DNA from: Reclinomonas americana ATCC 50394
Lineage: Eukaryota
DNA: 46,302 nt
Assembly: GCA_048213135.1 (NCBI GenBank)
Contig: PS015360.1
Location: 176,848-223,149 of the forward strand
Direction of reading: 5' to 3'
Within the stretch, counting starts at the first letter, position 1. Every line of letters starts with the position of its first letter. Both the position numbers and the translations under genes were made by a program. Below the pieces are notes generated by a model. It was not told where the DNA came from, did not search any database, and saw nothing but the letters and a program-made list of their open reading frames with translations. Of the stretch, positions 18,644 through 36,846 are shown piece by piece.

Positions 18644-21574
18644 ATGAACGGAGTGGCCAGGCACGCCGACGATTTCGACCGCCGCTCGCGAGTCTCAGTC
18701 AGCAACAATGAGAATCCACCGTATCCGGGCAACACGTTGCGTTTGTCGCCCTCGATGTTCTCGGCAAACGCAACATCGCTCACTGCCGATCTACACACAG
18801 ACTAAACGATCGCTTCACGACGGGCGGATTGGACGATGGCTACGACCGCCGACCAGCCACTGCCGACCGCGGTATGAACACGATGCCCGATCGTGATGCC
18901 GAAGAGCGCCAACCAGGTACGCAGAGGAGAAAACCTCGTCGGGTTTACAACGTACATGCATGATGAATCAGCGCTACTCGACACGCAGGCAGGGAAATAA
19001 GCAAGCTGGTGCGAGCCGACGATGTCCGTCGCGGTTCCGACTCGCCGTACGACAAGATGGGCGACTTCCGTCGGCCCAACATCCCCATCCTGTCGTATCA
19101 AGTTCAGTGATGTGTGTGTGTGCCACCAGTCGCTTTTTCCCCAGTGCTCACACCACTCTGCACGCGCACAGACCGAATATGCATCACAGTACCAGCCGTA
19201 TGCGCCACAACGGACGCATCGGGCCACTCGCTGAAGCAAAAGCTCCTGTCACAAATAAACGAAACGAAGTCAGTGTCCTAGTCCCATCGCAGCGATTCAT
19301 CTCCGTCATCGCCGAGCGCACGATGAAGGCGCTAGTCACCCTTTACCAGTCCATATGTCAGCGAGAGAGAATAAGGGTGCGTGTGTATGTGTGTGCGTGA
19401 GGTGACTCTCTGTGAGAGAACTCACAGTAGTGATCGCACAGCCGATCCGGCGAGTGGAGGCAGTGCTGGAAATGTACGATGGCGCACACCAGGCAGTGCT
19501 CGACTGCGACGATGAAGACGTCCAGGATGCCGTTGCGTGCACTTCCCTCACACAGTCGACGCCATCAGCAGTGATCACTCATTGTGTGTCGTTCAGGGGG
19601 CGATTGCACTGATCGAGGTTCTCACTGTGCAACGCCTTCGCGTGGAGCAACTCTCGCTGGCGCACAATCGACTCACCGATCGCACGGCGGCGATGCTGTC
19701 GAGTTATCTGGTGGCCAACGATCCTGTGCTGGTGCGACTGTCGCTGCGGCAGAACGAGATTGGGGTGGAGGGCGTGTCCAAGTTGGCGCGGGCCCTGCCC
19801 AAGATCACACGCCTGCGCGTACTCCATCTCGACAACAATCGTTTCGGCGCCGATGGCGCTGTGACGTTGGCGGTGGGGCTGGAGCGAAATCGCTCACTGC
19901 AGACTGTGACACTGCGCTCCAATGTCATGGGCGATCTCGGCATGCTGGCGTTTGTGGCTGTGATTGAGAACAATCGCACACTGACAGAGCTTGACCTGTC
20001 GTACAACGCGGCGTCGGATGACGAGACCGTTTCGTCCATGGCCAAGGTGCGTCGATGACGTAAAGTGGTGGGCATGCATTGACGCCAGTTGTTGATCTGG
20101 TATATGGTACACAGGCACTATCGGGCAATCACGTCATGTGTCGCCTGTTGCTGGCTGGCAATCGCTTCGGCCCGACGGTCTTGGATCCACTCACGCGGCA
20201 GCTGCGTCGCAACGAGGAACTGGCCATGTTCCAGCGCCAGGAGTCGATTGCCGAGCGACCGCATCGAGGAGTGGGGCGTGCGCCAGGCGGCAGCGGCGGC
20301 AGCGGCGCTGGTCCCTCCAGAACAACCCCTTCATCTGCAGCCGCACGGAGCAATGGCAGAGGAGAGTTTGCGGAGGAATCTGCGGTCGACCTCAACCCGG
20401 CGTCACAGGGTGCTGGTGGCACCTTGGTCCGCAACGGCCGGGTGTTCGTTGTCAGCGGTCCGCAGGATGCGCAGGCGCTCGGCAGTGATCAGGGCACCTC
20501 TGCCATGCTCGACGATGCGAGCGAGATCTCCACAGAAGCTGGGTCGTCACCCCGTGCTGCCGGCAGTGGTGCTGTTCTTGACAATGGCACCGTAGTCCTC
20601 AATCGGTATCGCGTAACCGGTCTCAGCGATGCTCACCGCGAGGAGGAGAGTGGCGGTCAGACGGTGCACCATGTTGACTATTTTGGCATCGATCTGGACA
20701 CCGACGAGCGAGTAGTCATCCAAGTGTGCACCGATGCCAAGTATCTGGCTCGGTGCGTCGCAGGTCGTGATACCGATCGACGTGTCGTTGCTTGCTGATC
20801 TCCCACTATTGTACTCGCAGACTCATGCAATACTCTGAGGTTCTGTCGCCTGCTGGTGCCTTGCCGCCTCTCCTACAAGGTGGTAAGCATACAGGCGTAT
20901 TCGTGGCCATCAATCCTCGCCCATTCGACACACTGGAGGAGTACATCAATCGGGTCAACTGCGTCGATGATCCGCTGGCATCAGTGACAGACGATCTGAT
21001 TGGCATTGTGCGCACGCTGACGCAGCTGAAGTTGGTGTGCATCGATCTCACTCCTCTGTGCTTTCGGCGATATGCCGAGAGGTATTCTCTGTCGGGCATT
21101 GACAAACTGCGCAAGGTAAGAGGCAGTAGGCGTGGCTTCAATTCACATGGTTTCATCTGCTGATTTGTTCCTGTTCCCCTTCTGCTCCAAGCTTGAGCAT
21201 GCGCGTGATGTTCCACTTCACTCATTTACCGTTTACACCGCGCCTGAGCACCTGGTGCAAGTGGCCAGCAATCCGCTCACCAGACTTGTCACCTTCACAA
21301 CCGAGTCAATCCTGTGGTCGCTCGGCATCGTCGTGTTGCACATGCACGTACCCGACATATTCCAGCAGTACCGTTCGTTGCAGACGTTCCTGGAGAGTCT
21401 CATCACCGGTACGTAGGCCTGCGACAGCCGCAGTGGCTGCCACCAGCGAGCTCACCGAAGTGCACAGATGACTTCCGACCCGATCTCGATCACCTCGTGG
21501 AGGACTTGCGAGTTCGTGATTTTCTCCGCGCTGTTTTGCAGCATCGGCCCGTCGACAGAACCCTACGGTGGTGA
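18644..21574 (+). CDS. Ribonuclease-inhibitor-type LRR protein with a C-terminal pseudokinase domain
   Basis: 28-aa LRRs (LSLAHNRLTD, LSLRQNEIGVEG, LHLDNNRFGADG, LDLSYN). Kinase-like exons: VLNRYRV..YFGIDLDTDERVVIQ, TLEEYI, LVCIDLTP, LSGID, YTAPE, ILWSLGIVV, RPVDR. The start is uncertain because a gap lies just upstream. Confidence 0.8.
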
Positions 21575-23704: not shown

Positions 23705-24790
23705 GACAACGAAGGAGTGCATGCATGTGTTTGTGCTTTGGGAGATTTGCAGTGCTCGGCTCACTCACATTCACCCACGCAGGCGTGTATGGCACGGTGC
23801 CGCAGATGGCGTCGCAGGCGGTGCGAGTGGTGCGGCTGTCTCCATCGGGACCGACATCGCGCTACGAGGTGCAACTGGTGGCGCAGTTCTCGCAGCCGAT
23901 GGTGGGTGTGCACGATTGATGTGGGTTGGAGACTGGAAGACGAGGNNNNNNNNNNNNNNNNNNNNNNNNNNNNNNNNNNNNNNNNNNNNNNNNNNNNNNN
24001 NNNNNNNNNNNNNNNNNNNNNNNNNNNNNNNNNNNNNNNNNNNNNNNNNNNNNNNNNNNNNNNNNNNNNNNNNNNNNNNNNNNNNNNNNNNNNNNNNNNN
24101 NNNNNNNNNNNNNNNNNNNNNNNNNNNNNNNNNNNNNNNNNNNNNNNNNNNNNNNNNNNNNNNNNNNNNNNNNNNNNNNNNNNNNNNNNNNNNNNNNNNN
24201 NNNNNNNNNNNNNNNNNNNNNNNNNNNNNNNNNNNNNNNNNNNNNNNNNNNNNNNNNNNNNNNNNNNNNNNNNNNNNNNNNNNNNNNNNNNNNNNNNNNN
24301 NNNNNNNNNNNNNNNNNNNNNNNNNNNNNNNNNNNNNNNNNNNNNNNNNNNNNNNNNNNNNNNNNNNNNNNNNNNNNNNNNNNNNNNNNNNNNNNNNNNN
24401 NNNNNNNNNNNNNNNNNNNNNNNNNNNNNNNNNNNNNNNNNNNNNNNNNNNNNNNNNNNNNNNNNNNNNNNNNNNNNNNNNNNNNNNNNNNNNNNNNNNN
24501 NNNNNNNNNNNNNNNNNNNNNNNNNNNNNNNNNNNNNNNNNNNNNNNNNNNNNNNNNNNNNNNNNNNNNNNNNNNNNNNNNNNNNNNNNNNNNNNNNNNN
24601 NNNNNNNNNNNNNNNNNNNNNNNNNNNNNNNNNNNNNNNNNNNNNNNNNNNNNNNNNNNNNNNNNNNNNNNAAGCGGCCGTGGAGAGAAGCGCGAGGAGA
24701 AGTACACGGTGCCGCTGAGCTTCAGTGGTCAGGATCTGCTGGACTACATCAGCCAGCAGAGTGGTGTCGATGTGCGCCAGGTGCGTCTGC

Positions 24791-24830
<40 letters not shown>

Positions 24831-27800
24831 TTGTTGCTGTTTTCGTTGTGGAGTGTTTCAGCAGCAGACTGACTGACGAGTGTGGATAGGGATACGACGT
24901 GCGATGCGGTGGAGGCGTGCTGCATCGACAGTTCCGACTGGGCCACTACGATCTGTCGCGCGGCTATCGCGTGCAGATGACGCTGGTGCGACACCAGTCG
25001 TACTGCGGCATGTGCTGGGTGCAGGCGAACACTGCCAACTTTGCGGCGACATCCGACGGACGGCGACTGGTTGTGGCGATGTGCGATCGAGAGGGGCGTG
25101 CGATGGGTGGCGCGACGGCGCACATGGTTGCGGGATCTGAGCTGCTGGAGCAGGTACTGCAGACGAACGAGCGCGGTGAGTCGGGCGTGGGAGATGGTTG
25201 TCGGATAGGAGGTCGAGGAGTGTCAGTGTTGACGAGCGATGTGTTGTGTAGGAGTGATTGACGTGCAGACCGACGATTCGTTCCGATGCGACTTCCTGGT
25301 GTGGCGACACGAGGCGAACTGGGGTGTGCTGCCTGTGTACTATGACAAGTTCCGTGAGTATCATGGAGCGCATCAACTGTATCGCGAGAAACAGCGGTTG
25401 CTCGGAGTGGCCAACAGTGATCGGTGAGTAGGCAGAGTGAGGATGGGAAGAGAATGTTGTTTTGCTGAATTGCTGGATGTGATCGCAGGTCGCTGTACAA
25501 GGCCGGTGAGGTTGTGACTGTGCATGGCCAGCTGCGAGTGGAAGACAAGGACGGACATTTGGTGTTTCCCAATCGCGAGTACTTTTCTGGTGCTCTGAAG
25601 AAGGCATCTGCGCCATTCCAGCCACGATTCATGCACAGGCTTCCATGGCAGCCCGTGGAACCAGCTGTTGTCGACATGGATGGTGTGCTGCATGATCGCG
25701 ATTGTTATCAGCGTGTCTCCGCGGTCTCATCCTGTACATGTACGATCTGCAGAGGCTATTGGCGGAGAAGCACCGTCGGTGGCTGCGACATTCTCGTATG
25801 AGAATCACCAGACGGACCACCGGATGACGATTGACGAGACTGGGTGGTCGTTTGATCTGCAGTTCACGCTGCCTGAGAGTGTGCGTGTGTGAATGTTATG
25901 ATAGTGTGGTGATGATGATTTCAGCGCTCACTCTGTGTGCTCTTGCTGTCGACCGAAAAAAGTGGGACGAGTCGCAAGGCGAGTCTGCGCGGATCGAGTT
26001 CAAGGTGAATCACTCGCGTCGGTGTGTGCTGGTGCTCGAGGGAGTGTCGATCACTGTCAAGGCGTTCCGCAAGCCCGGTTCGTGATGCGATGGCGGAGGA
26101 AGTAGATGGTGCGACTGACCGCACTGACTGTGCGTGTGACAGACTTTACGGTGACACCGACCATTGAGAAGCGCGACATGTATGTCAGCGGCGACGAGGT
26201 GCCGTCGGTGACTGTGTCCAAGTACCAGACAGGTGAGAGAGTTAGAAAGAGAGAGAGAGAGAGTGAGAGGGAGAGAGATGTGTTCGTATTCGTAGCACGC
26301 TTGCTCGTTCCATGGTTGTTATATGGGGTGGTAAAGACTAAAATACGATGCTGCAGACGACCCGGTGGTGGGCCAGCTTGTGACGTACCGGAAGACGCTG
26401 TCGTGCGCACAGGCATCGCCACTGAACAGCAGCAAAGTGTCGGCTGAGGCTCGTGAGCAACTGAGAGAGTACTTGTTCACCACGCCGTACGTGACGGTGG
26501 CGGAGCCTGCGATTCCTGTCACCGAGGCGACATCGGATCGAGCGGGAGAGTCGCGGCACACGTTTGTGGTGGACCACGTGAACTATCCGGTTCCGGTGCA
26601 AGTGCAACTGCAGGTGTGTGACGAGGGGAGGAGGGACGACGAGGAGTGAACGCAGTATCTCTCACCTGAGTGTGTCGTGATGGCAGGCGTCGCTGACGGA
26701 CTCGAGTGCGCAAACCTGGTGAGTGTGCACACAAGAGAGAGTGATTGGAGGAGGAGGAGGGTGCTCATATGTTTGGAGATCNNNNNNNNNNNNNNNNNNN
26801 NNNNNNNNNNNNNNNNNNNNNNNNNNNNNNNNNNNNNNNNNNNNNNNNNNNNNNNNNNNNNNNNNNNNNNNNNNNNNNNNNNNNNNNNNNNNNNNNNNNN
26901 NNNNNNNNNNNNNNNNNNNNNNNNNNNNNNNNNNNNNNNNNNNNNNNNNNNNNNNNNNNNNNNNNNNNNNNNNNNNNNNNNNNNNNNNNNNNNNNNNNNN
27001 NNNNNNNNNNNNNNNNNNNNNNNNNNNNNNNNNNNNNNNNNNNNNNNNNNNNNNNNNNNNNNNNNNNNNNNNNNNNNNNNNNNNNNNNNNNNNNNNNNNN
27101 NNNNNNNNNNNNNNNNNNNNNNNNNNNNNNNNNNNNNNNNNNNNNNNNNNNNNNNNNNNNNNNNNNNNNNNNNNNNNNNNNNNNNNNNNNNNNNNNNNNN
27201 NNNNNNNNNNNNNNNNNNNNNNNNNNNNNNNNNNNNNNNNNNNNNNNNNNNNNNNNNNNNNNNNNNNNNNNNNNNNNNNNNNNNNNNNNNNNNNNNNNNN
27301 NNNNNNNNNNNNNNNNNNNNNNNNNNNNNNNNNNNNNNNNNNNNNNNNNNNNNNNNNNNNNNNNNNNNNNNNNNNNNNNNNNNNNNNNNNNNNNNNNNNN
27401 NNNNNNNNNNNNNNNNNNNNNNNNNNNNNNNNNNNNNNNNNNNNNNNNNNNNNNNNNNNNNNNNNNNNNNNNNNNNNNNNNNNNNNNNNNNNNNNNNNNN
27501 NNNNNNNNNNNNNNNNNNNNNNNNNNNNNNNNNNNNNNNNNNNNNNNNNNNNNNNNNNNNNNNNNNNNNNNNNNNNNNNNNNNNNNNNGCGCTTTGTGAA
27601 GCCGGGAGTGGATCATTTCCTTGGATTTACGCTGACTGTGGAACACGTTGCGTTTGTTCGTGTGCATTCTATTGCATCTTCTCTTGCGCACACGCTGTGC
27701 TTGCACAGGAGGGCACGGTGCACTCGATTGAGATGAGGCTCAGCGAGTCGGTGCAATCGCTTGTTGCGACGGTTAAGGTGGAGAGCGTGTGCACCAGTGT

Positions 27801-30800
27801 TGACGTTGCAGAGTGCTCACTCAGTTGTTGGTGGATGATCGATGGTTCTGCAGGAGCTCGTGCCACACATGACCGGGTTGAGAACGGTACGAGGTCTGCG
27901 GCTGACCGACGATGAGGGGAAACTGCACCTGAGTCTTGGTGATGCTGGGGTGTTCTACGGAGATTGCATGATCATCGAAACGCCAATGCCGGCTGAAGGT
28001 GATTCAGGCCTGCTGTCTCTCTGATTGTCATGTTCGCTGACAGCTGTCAAAAGCTGCAAGGCAGCAAGTGGAAAGGCTTCAGGACGTCGTGAAGTCATCG
28101 ATCAGTAGTGTACTCCTGCGGGGAGAAACGTTGGACTCCCTGATGCCGAAGTCCGAAACGCTGAGCGCTTCAGCTGCCCGCTTCGGCGCGAAACCCAGAA
28201 GCGTGTTTTTAGATGACTCACGAGGTGGTGGTGGAATGATGGATCTACAACAGCAAGAGCAACAGGAAGCTAAGCCGCAAGAGGTTGTGGTGGTGGTGAG
28301 TAACAACTCTCCAGCAGTCAGCTCTTGAGCCGATTGATGCTCATCACAGATATTTTGATTGCAGCGCAACAATTTCTCGCCTATTGCAGCCTTCATCCCG
28401 CGCGCGACCACCGACGAGACTGGCCACGTGACTGTCCGCTTCGAGACGCCGGACTCGCTGACCAAGTTTCGTGTCCTCCTTGACGTGCACCACTTTGATT
28501 CATTTGTGCAGCAGTGCCAGAGGTGCTCACTGTGGTGCGGCGTAGGTACCGCATCTTCGTGTTTGCCAACAACGAGACCATGTTCAGTGGCGCAGCTGAG
28601 CTGCTGTTGACTGTGCGCATGGACTTTTCGATGCGGTGTGTGTGTGCTGCTGATGACTGCACTGTGTGTGTTAGTACTGGGTTGCACTCATATGTGCCTG
28701 GTGGGTATTGTAGGTTGACGATTCCACGCTTCCTGCACGTGGGCGACGAGTTCTCCGCGCAAATCACTCTGCTAAACTTCACCGACAAGGATTTGCGCAC
28801 ATCGCTGCTTGCACACTCGCCAGATGTGGTGATTCGGCAGCCCGCGCACTCCGTTTTCATTCCGGCGCGCGATCGGTAAGTGACGGGAGTTGTGCTTGTG
28901 TGGGTGGGTGAGTGGATCTCACTCTGTTTTATATTGTCGTGTCGGATGGCAGGTGCGATCTGAGTCTGGAGTGCACGGTGGAGGACGAAGTGATGGAGGC
29001 CAAGTTCAGTGCGGCTGCGTTTGCGCAGACGGTGGAGGAGGAGTCGCGCGAGTTGACGGATGCAGTGTATCTCGAGTTGCCGGTGTATGTACCGGTGGTG
29101 CCTGAGGAGGTGACGGCAGCTGGTGTGTTGGAGGGCGGTCAGCAGATTATTGCGCAGCGGATTCGTCGCAGCGACATTATGGTGCCAACGTACGGGTATC
29201 TGCGAGTGATGGCGTCGCGCGATCCCGGCATCCAGGTGTCGGGCATGGCGGAGGCGATGTACCGGTGTGTGTGTACATGTGTGTGCGCATGTGTGTAAGA
29301 GGATGACAGCTGACTTTTAGTGTGGTGGTGCAGGTACTTCTTGGATTGCACCGAGCAGCTGTCGTCAATGGTGCTGTGCTTGTCGTCGTGCTACGACTAT
29401 CCGGACTTGATCCCGCGGGTTTGTTTTTTGTTTTTGCGTGAGAACGTGAGCGATGGAAATTGTTGGCGCAGCTGACATTGGAGATGTGGTGGGAGTAGGT
29501 GTCAGCCGACCAGATTCTGAAGAAGGTGACGACGGCGCTGGTGTCGTTGAAGGGTCGGATTGTGAAGAAGCCGATCACCGGCTTCAACTCGTGGTGTGGG
29601 GTGCGTGTGTGTTTGTGCGCGAGTTGCAAGTCGGCAGCCTTTCTCACGTGTGTTGTTGCGCAGAACCATGTGGATCCGTTCTGCACCGTGTCGGCATATC
29701 AGGCACTTGTGTGTGCGGAGCGACGACTGCCGGCTGGGAGCCGTGCGGCGCAGCTGTGTCGCAGCATGCTGGCGGAAGTGGAGCCGTCGATGAGTGCATT
29801 CTTCAACACGGATCTGTCGTATGTGGAAGAGCACAACTCGTCACTGCGCGAGAATGCACATGCGCAGCTGTTCTTGGCGGCAGCGATTGGTGAGTGAAAG
29901 AGAGAGAGAGAGAGAGAGAGAGAGANNNNNNNNNNNNNNNNNNNNNNNNNNNNNNNNNNNNNNNNNNNNNNNNNNNNNNNNNNNNNNNNNNNNNNNNNNN
30001 NNNNNNNNNNNNNNNNNNNNNNNNNNNNNNNNNNNNNNNNNNNNNNNNNNNNNNNNNNNNNNNNNNNNNNNNNNNNNNNNNNNNNNNNNNNNNNNNNNNN
30101 NNNNNNNNNNNNNNNNNNNNNNNNNNNNNNNNNNNNNNNNNNNNNNNNNNNNNNNNNNNNNNNNNNNNNNNNNNNNNNNNNNNNNNNNNNNNNNNNNNNN
30201 NNNNNNNNNNNNNNNNNNNNNNNNNNNNNNNNNNNNNNNNNNNNNNNNNNNNNNNNNNNNNNNNNNNNNNNNNNNNNNNNNNNNNNNNNNNNNNNNNNNN
30301 NNNNNNNNNNNNNNNNNNNNNNNNNNNNNNNNNNNNNNNNNNNNNNNNNNNNNNNNNNNNNNNNNNNNNNNNNNNNNNCCTTGCGCAGGTACTCTCCAGC
30401 CTCGTCACGCTGCTTGCGATCCGCCTCGTCATCCGCCACTGTGTGTGTGTGTACAAGCACGGATGTGTGTGCGAGTGGCCTGCATGCATGCTCACTCGCT
30501 CGCTCACAGGCACATCAATCATCCCTCACCAGCCTCCATTTGAATGCGTCGGTCGAACACCGGAATCAGCAGCGCACAGCTCTCCACATCCAACGACGTG
30601 AAGTCCTCGATCTCCCACAGGCCCTTCATGATCGGAAGGACGAACGCTGCACAACACCAGCACCAGTCATCAGCCAGCAACACACGGACAGCTGAGGAAG
30701 TCACAAACACACAGCGGCGATCACGCACAACAAACGGCTCGGGTCGTTGCTCCGCTGCCATCACGCTGCGATGCAAGCACACCTGCACTCGTCACGCCGA

Positions 30801-33173
30801 AACCATTGAGCCACCCACTTGACAACACACCACACAGACACACACACTCTCCTNNNNNNNNNNNNNNNNNNNNCGCTCGACTTGATCAACAACTGGTGAG
30901 AGAGAAAGAGACAGAGAGGGAGAAGAGTCGCACTGTTGGTGATGGACTGTTGTGACCTGACGAGGTGCGTGGTGGAATGGAATAACAGCGTGGAAGACGA
31001 CGGCACGCATGCTCGACTGACGAGCTCGTTCTCGCGGATGTGGTCGGAGTACATTTTCGTCAACAGCAACCTGCGTGCGACGGCGTTGTTCTGTCGATCA
31101 CTGCTGGACTGTGGCATGGTGAGCGAGTGAATGGATGGATGTACGGACGGGAGTGAGTATGCACTGATGTAATGGATGCAGATGGACGATGATCGAGTGT
31201 TGATCGAGCCACTGAACGGACTGCGACTGTTGGTGCACCGACTGGTGCGTGGCATTGCGAAGGCACGCATTGCGACGCGAGTTGGATACTTTGGGACCAC
31301 TGTCGTTGCGTTTTCACATATCTTCTGTATGTCTCTCTCTCTCTCCCTTGCTCGTTCGCTCTCGCTCACTTGTGACCGCCGCTGTTGTCGTCGATGCGAA
31401 TGGTGATGTATCACTGAGCAGGAGAATGCTGTGGTGACGAATCTGCTGTGTCGGTACTACGAGCGCATGACGTCGGACCCTGAGGCGTCGCAAGTGCAAC
31501 TGTTCTACAAGGACATGTTGGTGCGCGAGCTGGAGGTGAAGCCGAAAGGTGCGTGGTTGTGTGGGAGGTGATGAACAAGGCGAGAACGAGAGAGAGAGAG
31601 AGAGAGAGAGNNNNNNNNNNNNNNNNNNNNNNNNNNNNNNNNNNNNNNNNNNNNNNNNNNNNNNNNNNNNNNNNNNNNNNNNNNNNNNNNNNNNNNNNNN
31701 NNNNNNNNNNNNNNNNNNNNNNNNNNNNNNNNNNNNNNNNNNNNNNNNNNNNNNNNNNNNNNNNNNNNNNNNNNNNNNNNNNNNNNNNNNNNNNNNNNNN
31801 NNNNNNNNNNNNNNNNNNNNNNNNNNNNNNNNNNNNNNNNNNNNNNNNNNNNNNNNNNNNNNNNNNNNNNNNNNNNNNNNNNNNNNNNNNNNNNNNNNNN
31901 NNNNNNNNNNNNNNNNNNNNNNNNNNNNNNNNNNNNNNNNNNNNNNNNNNNNNNNNNNNNNNNNNNNNNNNNNNNNNNNNNNNNNNNNNNNNNNNNNNNN
32001 NNNNNNNNNNNNNNNNNNNNNNNNNNNNNNNNNNNNNNNNNNNNNNNNNNNNNNNNNNNNNNNNNNNNNNNNNNNNNNNNNNNNNNNNNNNNNNNNNNNN
32101 NNNNNNNNNNNNNNNNNNNNNNNNNNNNNNNNNNNNNNNNNNNNNNNNNNNNNNNNNNNNNNNNNNNNNNNNNNNNNNNNNNNNNNNNNNNNNNNNNNNN
32201 NNNNNNNNNNNNNNNNNNNNNNNNNNNNNNNNNNNNNNNNNNNNNNNNNNNNNNNNNNNNNNNNNNNNNNNNNNNNNNNNNNNNNNNNNNNNNNNNNNNN
32301 NNNNNNNNNNNNNNNNNNNNNNNNNNNNNNNNNNNNNNNNNNNNNNNNNNNNNNNNNNNNNNNNNNNNNNNNNNNNNNNNNNNNNNNNNNNNNNNNNNNN
32401 NNNNNNNNNNNNGGGCTCACGCAACTCGTCTGCCTCGTACACCGCATGCAGCGACCGGTGCACCTCAAAGTTGCGGAACACAGCCTCCGCGAACTGCGGC
32501 TGCCGAGCGCATCGGAACGACACCTGCGCATATCACACGCACAACACTCACTATTCAGACTCCCCGACACTCCCTCCCCTTTCACGACGACAAAGAAATC
32601 CACACCTCGTAGAAGCATGGCGGTCCACCAGCCTTGTACACCACACAGTTCTGCGGAGCCGTGTCCACCTTGCGCATCGGCAGCATCATGTTGCTCATCT
32701 CTGCCGCTCATCAACACACACACACACACACTCCGGTCAGCTCTCTCTCTNNNNNNNNNNNNNNNNNNNNTGGGGTGGGGGAGGGGGAAAGTTAGTAAGC
32801 GATGCTGATGGATGAATGGTGCACCAGGAATTGTGGTCAGGCGATCACATGCTGCAGTATGTGGTGCGCGCCACGAGTCGCGGTCGATTCACGATGCCGG
32901 GTGCCAAGATTGAAGAGGTGAGGAGGGAAAGGANNNNNNNNNNNNNNNNNNNNGGGAGGGAGGGGAGGGAGGGAGGGAAGAGAGTGTGGGAAGGAAGGAA
33001 GGCAGACAGGAAGAATCGGTGTCGGTTGTGCATTTTGTCCTGTTGATTGACTAGGCATGGCATGGTGTGTGTGTGTGCGTGTGTGTCTCTCTCTCTGTGT
33101 GTGTGAATCGCAGCTGTACAGCCCGGAGAACTACGGCATCAGCGAGCCGTGCTTCATCACCGTGGTCGAATGA
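21661..33173 (+). CDS. Bacterial-type alpha-2-macroglobulin (thioester protein) with Ubl and R-SNARE-like inserts; interrupted by assembly gaps
   Basis: Motifs in the expected order: VRLSPSG..AQFSQPM; SDRSLYKAGEVVTVHGQLR; VKAFRKPDFTV; VRNNFSPIAAFIPRATTDETGHVTVRFETPDSLTKYRIFVFA; LTIPRFLHVGD; YFLDCTEQLSS (29347-29358); GYFGTTVENA; YVVRATSRGRFTMPGAKIEELYSPENYGIS; TGA at 33171-33173. Linking 21661-22110 to the rest crosses a gap and is inferred. Confidence 0.85.
24791..24829. repeat. (GAT)n microsatellite, intronic
   Basis: Directly visible just after the donor at 24781. Confidence 0.9.
30379..30853 (-). other. Gap-flanked contig carrying probable A2M thioester-domain exons in reverse orientation
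   Basis: Minus strand shows GT-AG introns and exons FVLPIMKGLWEIEDFTSLDVESCALLIPVF.. and VADDEADRKQRDEAGEYLRK. Its reverse-complement start continues the (GA)n intron that ends at 29925. Confidence 0.65.
32413..32750 (-). other. Gap-flanked contig carrying A2M C-terminal-region exons in reverse orientation
   Basis: Minus strand encodes ..VVYKAGGPPCFYE|VSFRCARQPQFAEAVFRNFEVHRSL, matching the G.G.LYY....Y....G..V.R.Y pattern. Its reverse complement starts with (AG)n, continuing 31610. Confidence 0.7.
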
Positions 33174-34370: not shown

Positions 34371-36846
34371 CTACTTTGATGTGTGGTACGAATACGACCG
34401 CTGTCGGCGGAATTCGTCGAACTCGTCAGCCCGGAAACCAATGCCGCGAAAGTCGGAGCCCATGCTTGCAGTGAAACCACCTGAGCCATCCTGTGCGTCA
34501 TGCATCAGTTGCTGGGCGCGTTCAGCGACACTGTCGGCATTCCGCGACGAGCTGCTGTTGCGAGAGGACGACCCAGTGGAACTGGCGGTGGACCGACGTG
34601 GCTCACGATCTGTTGTTGTCGTTGTCGTCCGTCGCGTTGCCACATACACCGGCGTGTCCTCGTCTTCGCTGATGTACGGCGAGTCCTCATCGTCACTGCC
34701 TCCGTGTTCACCGGTTCCTTTCATAGGAGCGTCTCGCCCCGCTGCGCCCTTGTCGGTGCGAAGCGCGGCCTTCCGGTAAAAATGATCAAGTGCACGCTGC
34801 ACGCGTGACGGCAACACCGACGCCTTGGCGGGCAGTGTGGTCGGGATATCGGAGACGATGATTGGTGTGTACGGTGCGCCACGCTTGGAGAGCTCAGCCA
34901 GGACGCCGCCGGGAATATTGAGGGCGGTGATCTTGCTGGAGAAGCCAATGCTGGGACCGCTGGCAACATGAGCCTCTGGCGGTGTAAACAAGCTCTAATC
35001 GCACGAGAACAAGGTGGTTGGCCGAGTGCGACGACAGCTGAATGCTCCCTCTCATAACCCTTCGCTCGAGTACGCAACGGGTGGCGCTCCGGGTGGTGCA
35101 GGCAGCAGAGAGCCTCGTTCAAGCAGAGCTCGTTCTCGAGCCCGCTGCAACTCACGAATCTCCTTCTCCAGACGACGCTCAGCCTCGCGAGATCCGTCGT
35201 CAATCACACTCTCGAGTTCGTCAAGGACCGTGACAGGGAATACTTTCTTGTGCGACCACCGATCGATGAGCTGAACACGAACGATGAGCGGAACGGAGTG
35301 AAAGGAGTATGGTGTGCACGAGAAGCAGTAACTCAACTCGCTCTATCGATCGCTCGTCTCGCTCATCACGAGCACAAGCCTCCATGCTTCGTGGCAGTTC
35401 ACGGAGCATGGCCACAGCGAGCGGATCGTCGAGGAAGTTGTAAGTTGTGTTTCCAGATGCTTGCCTACAGACGCCAGCGTGCGTGAGTAGCACACCAGCA
35501 GGGGCGACAACGCTAGTATCTGCACAGCGCACCGAGACACCAGCAGCTCGTCAACGAGATTCAGCATGTGCAGGGCAGCACCGTGCTCCAACTCGTCCTC
35601 AGCATGCCGTCGAATGAGTTTGGCCACAGTCGCCGGCGGTATCTGCAGGTGCGATTGGATCCACGCAGCCGTGCTCTGCAGCGCGCCGAGTCAGCCGCCA
35701 ATCTTTTGCACGAACACGCAGTCGACGGGGAGCGGAACGCACCGAGATTTCTTCATCGCCTTGAATGTGGCGAAGCATCTCTCTCAGCTGCTCCTGCTCG
35801 TCTGGTGGCTCTGCTCGCCAGTCCTCCTGCAACGCCAAGATGATCAGCAATTGTCTCATTGTGTGCAATAACTTGCACACAGGCAGCAAACACACACCTC
35901 GTGTGCGCCAATTGCGCCATCGGCGACTATGTGTGTTGCAGGCAGTGAGAAACGCAGGAGAGAAGCGTGTGATGCGCAGGCAACGTACCGTTTCCCAGGG
36001 TGAGCTGCTCGTGAATACGATGCAGGAGGTAGCGATAAAAGCCGTGAAACTCAGTTCCCGGAAAGAGGAATGCAAACTGCGGATTGCCATTGTGCTTCTC
36101 CCGCATGGACGCCTCGTACTGCGGACCACTGCGGACCACGTAGTTGGCAGTGCGCTCAATCAAGCCACGCAGCTCGACATCTGCACGCGCATAAGTCAGC
36201 GAGCATGCCAAGACAATGCAAACTCAGAGCGGCGATCACCGCACCAACAGGCGGCTGCGGTGTTGGAGGCAGCGGGGGAAGAGAAGGAGGAGGAGGAGGA
36301 GGAGGCGTAGCCATCATCATGTGCGACGGCGCATGAGCGTGGTGGTGATGCATCATTGGCAGTGGTGGTTGTGGCGGCATTGGAGGCGGTGGCAACACGC
36401 TGCCGCCCGGATGTTGATGTTGATGATAGTGATGTGGAGGCATAGGAGGAGCAGCAGGAGGTGGTGGAGGGTTGGGAGGTGGCGCACTGGCAGCATACTG
36501 TGCATGCATGTGCTGCGGGTGCATGTGTTGATAGTGATGGAAATGAGGTGGTGGTGGAGGTGGAGGTGGTGGTACGGCTTGCTGTTGCTGCTGATAGAAG
36601 GCTGCAGGCGGTGCAAGCAGCGATGGACCCGTCGGAGGCACCTGCATGCACATGAGTCAGAGTGTGTGTGTGTGAGAGAGAGAGAGAGTGAGAGTGGGAA
36701 CATGTGTCAACCTGCATGTAGCCGTGTGGTGGTGGTGGTGGTTGTGGTGGTGTCGGCGCTTGTGGTGCCTGTGGGTAGCCGTATGGCAGTGGTTGCGGCT
36801 GCGGAGGAGCACCACCGCCATACCCGTGAGGATACGGGTATGACAT
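34371..36846 (-). CDS. CHERP: CHERP-like splicing factor (Pro-rich N-terminus, SURP, CID-like region)
   Basis: SURP domain LIERTANYVVRSGPQYEASMREKHNGNPQFAFLF..HGFYRY. LNIPGGVLAEL..YTPI..DIP..ALDHFY segment. C-terminus FRGIG..DEFDEFRRQRSYSY resembles the CHERP end DPYENYRRNKSYSF. Confidence 0.8.

Follow-up and report, generated by a model that had tools for sequence, protein, structure and literature searches.

Macroglobulin scaffold or ubiquitin-like insertion ahead of an R-SNARE motif in a predicted thioester alpha-2-macroglobulin gene of Reclinomonas americana

A stretch of 46,302 nucleotides from Reclinomonas americana ATCC 50394 (assembly GCA_048213135.1, contig PS015360.1, positions 176,848 to 223,149), designated the window, contains a gene predicted to encode a thioester alpha-2-macroglobulin (A2M) with an R-SNARE motif at the position of the bait. 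Three putative exons located upstream from this motif together encode about 90 residues, which a preliminary description had proposed to form a ubiquitin-like (Ubl) domain and a possible second decoy. We tentatively favor the view that these residues belong to the pre-bait macroglobulin (MG) scaffold of the protein itself rather than to a separate Ubl module, an assignment to which the sequence gives somewhat less than an even chance. An inserted Ubl domain is the less likely of the two possibilities, and the tests reported below do not settle which one applies. The LSLGDAGVF..TPMP motif ending the segment, canonical spacing, domain accounting, and parsimony lean toward the scaffold. A crude global alignment with ubiquitin and weak language-model neighbours lean toward the Ubl domain. 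The weight that remains after these two readings, a wrong splice model, and a longin-type domain belongs to something else.

The window is a gapped eukaryotic assembly scaffold containing 12 runs of N. One of these runs (807 bases, 26782..27588) stops one base short of the segment and hides the 5' part of exon 1 together with everything between the bMG5-like exon and the segment. Since it cuts exon 1, the start of the segment is hidden. The visible 3' part of exon 1 (27590..27646, + strand) reads ..RFVKPGVDHFLGFTLTVEH. Exon 2 (27709..27777, + strand) reads EGTVHSIEMRLSESVQSLVATVK and matched no Pfam family. Exon 3 (27854..27998, + strand) reads ELVPHMTGLRTVRGLRLTDDEGKLHLSLGDAGVFYGDCMIIETPMPAE (27854-27997), followed by the first base of the next codon. 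In agreement with the preliminary description, these letters are present in the DNA and the three exons join in frame with the SNARE exon. The joined frame remains open through the SNARE exon (28054-28295) and then, across a 69-nt intron, into the A2M exon at 28365.

The host gene and its R-SNARE motif

Judged from its sequence, the host gene is a large, intron-rich thioester A2M gene of the bacterial (ECAM/YfhM-like) type. A Pfam scan covering 79 open reading frame (ORF) pieces of the + strand, together with searches of the exon translations up to an E-value of 10, detected four colinear families, all on the + strand. These were bMG5 (26335-26646; E = 0.072, a weak match), Synaptobrevin (ORF piece 28041-28325; E = 1.3e-7, 31.8 bits versus a cut-off of 26.4), A2M (28359-28876; E = 0.01 and 0.0016 on single ORF pieces), and bMG10, in a C-terminal exon near the gene end (32816..32932; E = 6.8e-6, 26.7 bits versus a cut-off of 26.2). 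The bMG10 exon was also matched, at 23.9 bits, by a hidden Markov model (HMM) of ECAM-like A2Ms built from 24 fragments. The window carries one A2M gene only.

For comparison, A2M regions were collected from Bacteroidota genomes: 30 loci via PF07703 (36 of 81 genomes matched) and 30 via an ECAM-like fragment (73 of 301 genomes). The HMMs of both sets aligned the joined protein only from DSRGGGG.. to RNNFSPIAAF..PDSLTKFRV (21.3 bits and, for the ECAM-like HMM, 26.9 bits). This stretch matches the conserved post-bait block of bacterial A2Ms, 'GGGGG..R.dFr..ayW..TD..G.a...f.lPDnLT.fR'. Exon 5 (28365..28475, + strand; RNNFSPIAAFIPRATTDETGHVTVRFETPDSLTKFRV) provides the predicted post-bait half of the split MG domain and the start of the Pfam A2M match (E = 0.0034-0.01); its ORF alone scored 24.8 bits with the ECAM-like HMM, and further matches of this HMM follow colinearly downstream. 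An ORF piece located at 29314..29472 (+ strand) contains ..RYFLDCTEQLSS.., in which DCTEQ can be read directly. The bacterial consensus at this position is YPYGCLEQ, and the corresponding letters are DCSEQ in a relative, P0002. DCTEQ is thus predicted to be the CxEQ thioester motif of the TED, although the ECAM-like HMM left this short exon unaligned.

Three proteins at E <= 0.001, none of them a bacterial A2M, were returned by a full HMMER scan in which the 107-aa exon 28948-29268 was compared with 1.84 billion proteins. Two are fragmentary relatives, P0002 (58% identity; an ENA contig of 2706 bases) and P0004 (39% identity; a JGI contig of 2400 bases). The third, P0003, is a repeat protein and was taken as spurious. 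Two metagenome scans detected no relative. Because the HMMER scan yielded only two fragmentary relatives, the gene appears to be very divergent; the same two matches indicate that members of the family occur in two or more further sampled organisms or paralogues.

Exon 4 (28054..28295, + strand) carries the R-SNARE motif (approximately 28056-28193), with the zero-layer Arg at 28119-28121, followed by a GGGG linker (28224-28235) that aligns with the post-bait 'GGGGG' of bacterial A2Ms. The best PDB sequence match of the exon was VAMP4 (E = 1.3e-5), with LLRGETL on IERGERL and the zero-layer Arg aligned. The longin SNAREs scored far below (Ykt6, E = 0.19; VAMP7, E = 0.55), and a Ykt6-like identity of the motif was rejected on the basis of the VAMP4 match. 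The exon has no C-terminal membrane anchor: the match covers positions 6-53 of the 89 positions of the profile and is followed by ..AKPRSVFLDDSRGGGGMMDLQQQEQQ.. and the A2M block. As judged from these alignments, the R-SNARE motif in the bait position of an A2M looks real and unusual. Among the papers listed by a literature search, none concerned a SNARE or Ubl module in a macroglobulin bait, and none was relevant to protist thioester proteins. Among longer proteins, the SNARE exon matched only P0001, a 523-aa non-A2M protein (E = 0.11). P0001, a hypothetical JGI protein, contains an internal SNARE-like stretch 52% identical to the motif of the window, closer than the canonical SNAREs found in the same search.

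Longin domains precede the R-SNARE motifs of Ykt6, Sec22, and VAMP7. The segment could accordingly be a truncated longin-type domain (beta-beta-alpha-beta-beta-beta, without the last two helices) inserted together with the R-SNARE motif from a longin SNARE gene of the host. The order of the secondary-structure elements fits, the SNARE motif itself is real, and a single donor would account for both pieces. This origin is nevertheless very improbable. The SNARE motif is nearest to VAMP4 rather than to Ykt6 or VAMP7, single exons gave no Longin match in Pfam, and no longin SNARE was present among the PDB matches of exon 3. The ESM Atlas neighbours of exon 3 included no longin or SNARE-like cluster. 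In addition, only seven residues separate ..CMIIE from the SNARE motif, so that helices alpha2 and alpha3 would be missing.

According to the ECAM paper (PMC4498604), the bait domain of bacterial A2Ms is located inside MG8. We obtained an AlphaFold model of a bacterial A2M fragment from a 23-sequence alignment (mean pLDDT, the predicted local distance difference test, of 79). Its best PDB matches were ECAM (5a42) and the Salmonella A2M (4u4j/4u48), with E-values of about 1e-14 to 1e-13; chains of C5, C3, and C4 were also among its structural matches. In this model the conserved pre-bait motif comprises a strand (EIAFSAAD), a short helix (AGVLNL), and a turn; a second short helix (PFDVF) comes next, and the following 43 residues, corresponding to the bait, are disordered. 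In the protein encoded by the window, the SNARE helix starts where the disordered bait of the bacterial model starts, directly after ..KLHLSLGDAGVFYGDCMIIETPMP.

The order of the domains, bMG5, split bait MG, A2M, CxEQ, and bMG10, is that of ECAM (E. coli YfhM) and Salmonella SaA2M (PDB 5a42, 4u48, 4ziq). The post-bait block 'GGGG..R..F..PDsLT.fR' of these proteins is conserved in the protein of the window, and ..DAGV..P.P just before its bait resembles 'aDaGVL..LPDP'. In contrast, the gene of the window is eukaryotic, contains many GT-AG introns of 55-76 nt, and is very divergent; its bait holds an R-SNARE motif, and its pre-bait segment is not detectable by profiles as A2M_BRD.

The pre-bait segment as macroglobulin scaffold

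According to the favored reading, the segment would comprise the end of the preceding MG domain and the N-terminal half of the split, bait-carrying MG domain (MG8 in the bacterial numbering, Pfam A2M_BRD region, PF07703). The candidate pre-bait motif KLHLSLGDAGVFYGDCMIIETPMP (27920..27991, + strand) was delineated from the global hhalign alignment, the consensus of 23 sequences, shuffle tests, and the secondary structure of the bacterial model. It would supply the conserved last strand, the short helix, and the 'LPDP' turn, after which the bait would begin. Its counterpart in the ECAM-like A2Ms of bacteria would be 'EvaLSvaDaGVLnLigYrLPDP', the conserved stretch with which the half of MG8 ahead of the bait terminates. 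Only the R-SNARE motif, between TPMP and DDSRGGGG..RNNF, would then form the bait itself. The role of the segment would be to hold and display this bait, and its pairing with the post-bait strands RNNFSPIAAF..PDSLTKFRV would make the beta-sandwich complete. The family of the gene, the SNARE motif, and the post-bait anchor follow from the matches described above; how the pre-bait segment aligns, and with it the fold of the segment, we infer from the comparisons that follow.

The consensus of ECAM-like A2Ms ahead of the bait reads '..EVALSVADAGVLNLIGYRLPDPFETFY..'. The C-terminal LSLGDAGVF..TPMP of the segment resembles 'lsvaDaGVL..LPDP' at the end of the scaffold in these proteins, and hhalign in global mode placed SLGDAGV..ETPMP on 'AvVDeGvL..kTPdP'. 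Global alignment of the 55 residues VQSLVATV-TPMP with the 57-59-aa region MG8a..LPDP of bacterial A2Ms gave a mean score of 9.4, versus -9.9 +/- 5.8 for shuffled sequences (6 of 2000 reached it), and no other of the 154 stretches into which the joined protein was divided for this test scored as high. When the test was split between two HMMs, 8 of 5000 shuffles scored as high as the N-terminal half did with MG7 and 55 of 5000 as high as the C-terminal half did with MG8a; 2 of 5000 equalled the two scores added together.

Domain accounting was also considered. Position 115 of the bMG5 profile (26634 in the window) and the end of A2M_BRD are separated by 296-303 residues in two bacterial A2Ms. 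If the end of A2M_BRD is placed at ..DAGVFYG (about 27961), 68-71% of the 955 unseen bases should be coding, and the gene has a measured coding density of 69%, derived from 206 profile positions over 892 bases. An extra domain at this place would instead raise the value for the unseen stretch to 89-91%, which counts against an inserted Ubl domain. The space in the gap thus fits the canonical domains only if the segment is one of them. We rank the scaffold first because these strands are required at this place throughout the known family, because the DAGV..P.P motif, the length of the segment, and the domain accounting fit, and because one insertion, that of the SNARE motif, is simpler than two.

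Several observations weigh against this assignment. No profile method aligned the segment with A2M_BRD: Pfam detected nothing on the exons, hmmsearch gave no match in the first 95 residues, and hmmalign left the first 144 residues unaligned. With bacterial A2Ms, hhalign aligned exon 3 at a probability of 1.5%, in a register different again from the others, and exon 2 at 0.1%; with the ECAM-like region, 17 of 300 shuffles equalled the hhalign score. When 72 residues of the segment were aligned on an equal footing with 72 pre-bait residues of 21 and 23 bacterial A2Ms, z was 1.5 (100 and 105 of 1500 shuffles reached the score), versus 3.0 for ubiquitin in the same test. When the other type of Bacteroidota A2Ms served as the reference, the shuffle tests showed no signal (523, 529, and 418 of 5000). 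At least four registers of the segment on the bacterial consensus look plausible by eye, and each of them is weak for that reason. The boundaries of the alignments were set after the alignments had been seen, so that the shuffle figures flatter the scaffold, and the domain accounting assumes that the length of the N run is roughly right and that a divergent protein has domains of canonical size. Finally, SESVQSLVATVKELV displayed a helix-like periodicity over a run of 9 windows, versus a longest run of 7 in the true strands of 23 bacterial sequences. The hydrophobic-moment profile was however rejected as a discriminator, since 195 of 1453 strand windows of the bacterial model were miscalled as helix-like, and part of the segment too.

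A scaffold role of the segment, if true, would define where the bait begins and ends: the R-SNARE motif would stand alone between TPMP and GGGG, where bacterial A2Ms have a disordered bait. The neighbouring idea of a SNARE bait would thereby become cleaner and directly testable.

An inserted ubiquitin-like domain

The second possibility, which we consider doubtful, is that a genuine ubiquitin-like domain of the beta-grasp fold (beta-beta-alpha-beta-beta-3_10-beta), specified by the three exons, has been inserted after the scaffold and ahead of the SNARE motif. Such a domain would serve as another bait or decoy, as a handle for binding, or as a tag for degradation. Five sequences of the ubiquitin family from Bacteroidota genomes (5 of 401 matched) served as the reference. 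Global alignment of the joined 72 residues FTLTVEH..CMIIE with these ubiquitins, in the register proposed previously, gave a mean score of 12.8, versus -10.0 +/- 7.6 for shuffles. The corresponding z was 3.0, and the score was reached by 12 of 1500 and 13 of 2000 shuffled sequences and by none of 44 pre-bait segments of 72 residues from bacterial A2Ms (maximum of 1.2). Global alignment with ubiquitin is crude, and a z of 3 is not striking since the pattern had been picked out of the whole window. Moreover, 29 of 3736 natural 91-aa windows of bacterial A2Ms equalled the score of the segment against the ubiquitin HMM.

The profile and PDB searches were made exon by exon and did not support the domain. 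No family of the ubiquitin clan was found by Pfam in any exon or ORF piece. For exon 3, hhalign returned a probability of 0.2% against ubiquitin, over 4 columns. With exon 2 it placed EMRLSESVQS on ubiquitin 'eVE..Dti', in the register proposed previously, with a probability of only 0.4%. For the joined segment, the local matches found by HMMER (8 of 5000 shuffles scored as high) and by hhalign (3 of 300) were in another register, with FTLTVEH on strand beta2, and could not be extended; the C-terminal half had no local match to ubiquitin. The only PDB sequence match of exon 3 was a bile-salt hydrolase (E = 0.85), and searches of 5.8 billion proteins revealed no homologue of this exon among longer proteins (9 candidates) or among proteins of similar length. 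The pattern described as typical of Ubl folds was non-specific in every profile test applied.

Among the ten nearest rows of exon 3 in named ESM Atlas clusters, five were ubiquitin, Rad60-SLD, or Ufm1, and two further neighbours, TmoB and CLU_N, are folds that we take to be of the beta-grasp type. All ESM Atlas scores were in the range of 0.76-0.79, under the noise mark of 0.9, and large A2M proteins cannot be neighbours of a 48-aa query. The AlphaFold model of exon 3 alone (mean pLDDT of 63) comprised a strand (LRL), a second strand (LHLS), a short helix, and a strand, but had no Foldseek match at E <= 0.001. A helix-like periodicity was present at the place expected for alpha1, according to the measure judged unreliable above. 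By comparison with ubiquitin, Rad60-SLD, and Ufm1, the hydrophobic pattern and the predicted order of elements of the segment can be threaded on ubiquitin. In contrast to these proteins, the segment has no significant profile match and does not end with Gly-Gly.

The latter feature bears on function. As previously stated, no diglycine follows the last strand: the sequence reads ..CMIIETPMPAEAARQQ and contains no Gly-Gly past ..CMIIE. An inserted domain would therefore not be a substrate-type bait for deubiquitinases, and the decoy idea is weakened by the lack of a scissile Gly-Gly. It is improbable that the bait contains two tandem mimics of host targets, a folded Ubl domain and then the R-SNARE motif, by which a single trap could sense and covalently capture effector proteases directed at Ubl and SNARE proteins and deployed by intracellular or predatory microbes. 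If a Ubl domain were present, the protein would be the first macroglobulin known to us with a folded host-like module beside a second mimic in its bait. Whichever reading is true, the Ubl claim should not be treated as established.

Two known arrangements can be compared with the proposed insertion. In complement C3, C4, and C5, the anaphylatoxin (ANA) domain occupies the equivalent site and is a folded module inside a split MG domain. By analogy with this precedent, and only so, an inserted domain is structurally conceivable in the protein of the window. ANA differs from a Ubl domain in being a bundle of helices, which a specific convertase releases. In the integrated decoys of plant nucleotide-binding leucine-rich-repeat receptors, a host target motif is built into the sensor, which thereby becomes the object of the pathogen effector. 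The present proposal follows this idea with another chassis, a thioester trap, in which the evidence for an embedded host-like target applies to the SNARE motif and not to the Ubl domain.

Two side observations concern ubiquitin-like sequences. Ubiquitin genes near-identical to eukaryotic ubiquitin were found in 4 of the 401 Bacteroidota genomes (bins L062-L065, L067), one locus being a 347-base contig with a tandem copy; these genes may represent contamination or known bacterial ubiquitin homologues. In the window, YTVPLSFSGQDLLDYISQQSGVDVRQ (24700-24781), which immediately follows an N run close to the 5' portion of the gene, resembles the first half of a ubiquitin-like domain. Pfam detected only DEP (E = 0.089) in this stretch, and a (GAT)13 repeat is located next to it.

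Support for the splice model and neighbouring features

The segment depends on three proposed introns on the + strand: intron 1 (27647..27708; 62 nt, phase 0, GTTGCG..CACAG), intron 2 (27778..27853; 76 nt, phase 0, GTGGAG..CTGCAG), and intron 3 (27999..28053; 55 nt, phase 1, GTGATT..CTGAC..AAAG). The last of these, with CTGAC ahead of the acceptor, would indeed link exon 3 to the SNARE exon in an open frame, as had been proposed. The three introns (55-76 nt) are of the same size as the neighbouring introns of the gene. The GC contents at codon positions 1, 2, and 3 (GC1/2/3) were 0.68/0.32/0.53 for exon 1, 0.57/0.39/0.78 for exon 2, and 0.67/0.42/0.62 for exon 3. These values fit coding in the proposed frames (GC1 high, GC2 low, GC3 high), as in the other exons of the gene (GC1 about 0.65, GC2 about 0.42, GC3 0.57-0.78), and the signature was absent from the shifted frames of the three exons. 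The reference comprised 8 exons of the same gene, 7 of which had the signature; the eighth was probably read in the wrong frame.

There is a small chance that the actual splicing differs, by use of a donor at 27656 or 27662, of donor 27887 with acceptor 28043, or of other paths, and that some of the 70-aa domain is a product of the gene model and not of the cell. A permissive enumeration yielded 18,818 distinct GT..AG paths with 3-4 introns that leave the frame open from 27590 as far as the SNARE exon; no such path had fewer than 3 introns. Because so many open paths exist, open joining alone is weak evidence. The donor of intron 1 (GTTGCG at 27647) is weak; use of the in-frame alternatives at 27656 and 27662, situated 9 and 15 bases further downstream, would lengthen the product by VAF or VAFVR. 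The combination of donor 27887 and acceptor 28043 is also in frame, and the similarity to SNAREs reaches two residues upstream of the acceptor at 28053. However, the resulting intron would have 157 nt, versus 55-76 nt for the proposed and neighbouring introns, and the stretch 27887-27997, which would become intronic, is coding-like (GC1/2/3 of 0.70/0.41/0.57), as are the three exons. None of the alternative models scored by HMM (16,571 of 18,818) exceeded 3.5 bits against A2M_BRD, and none had a recognisable A2M_BRD. The earlier observation is partly confirmed: the letters are as described and codon-position GC upholds the frames, whereas the splice junctions remain putative, given the weak first donor and the 18,818 other paths.

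Additional observations were made on these exons. A tandem acceptor, CAGGAG (27706-27711), is present at the start of exon 2; if its second AG were used, the first Glu would be lost. In two public runs, contigs match only 28971-29273, without exon joints, and display two A>G differences (29091 and 29187). One of these contigs stops at 29269, near the exon end, in letters that resemble a sequencing adaptor. These contigs may be of cDNA origin.

No Pfam family was found in four antisense ORFs; there was no Rfam family, and no DNA repeat between 27589 and 28400; a scan for bacterial promoters and terminators gave results at chance level. On the + strand, the neighbouring gene at 19516-20055 encodes a leucine-rich-repeat protein (LRR_6, E = 3e-18). 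On the opposite side, a neighbouring gene of the - strand (34374-34994) includes a SWAP1_C-like piece (E = 2e-5, slightly below the cut-off).

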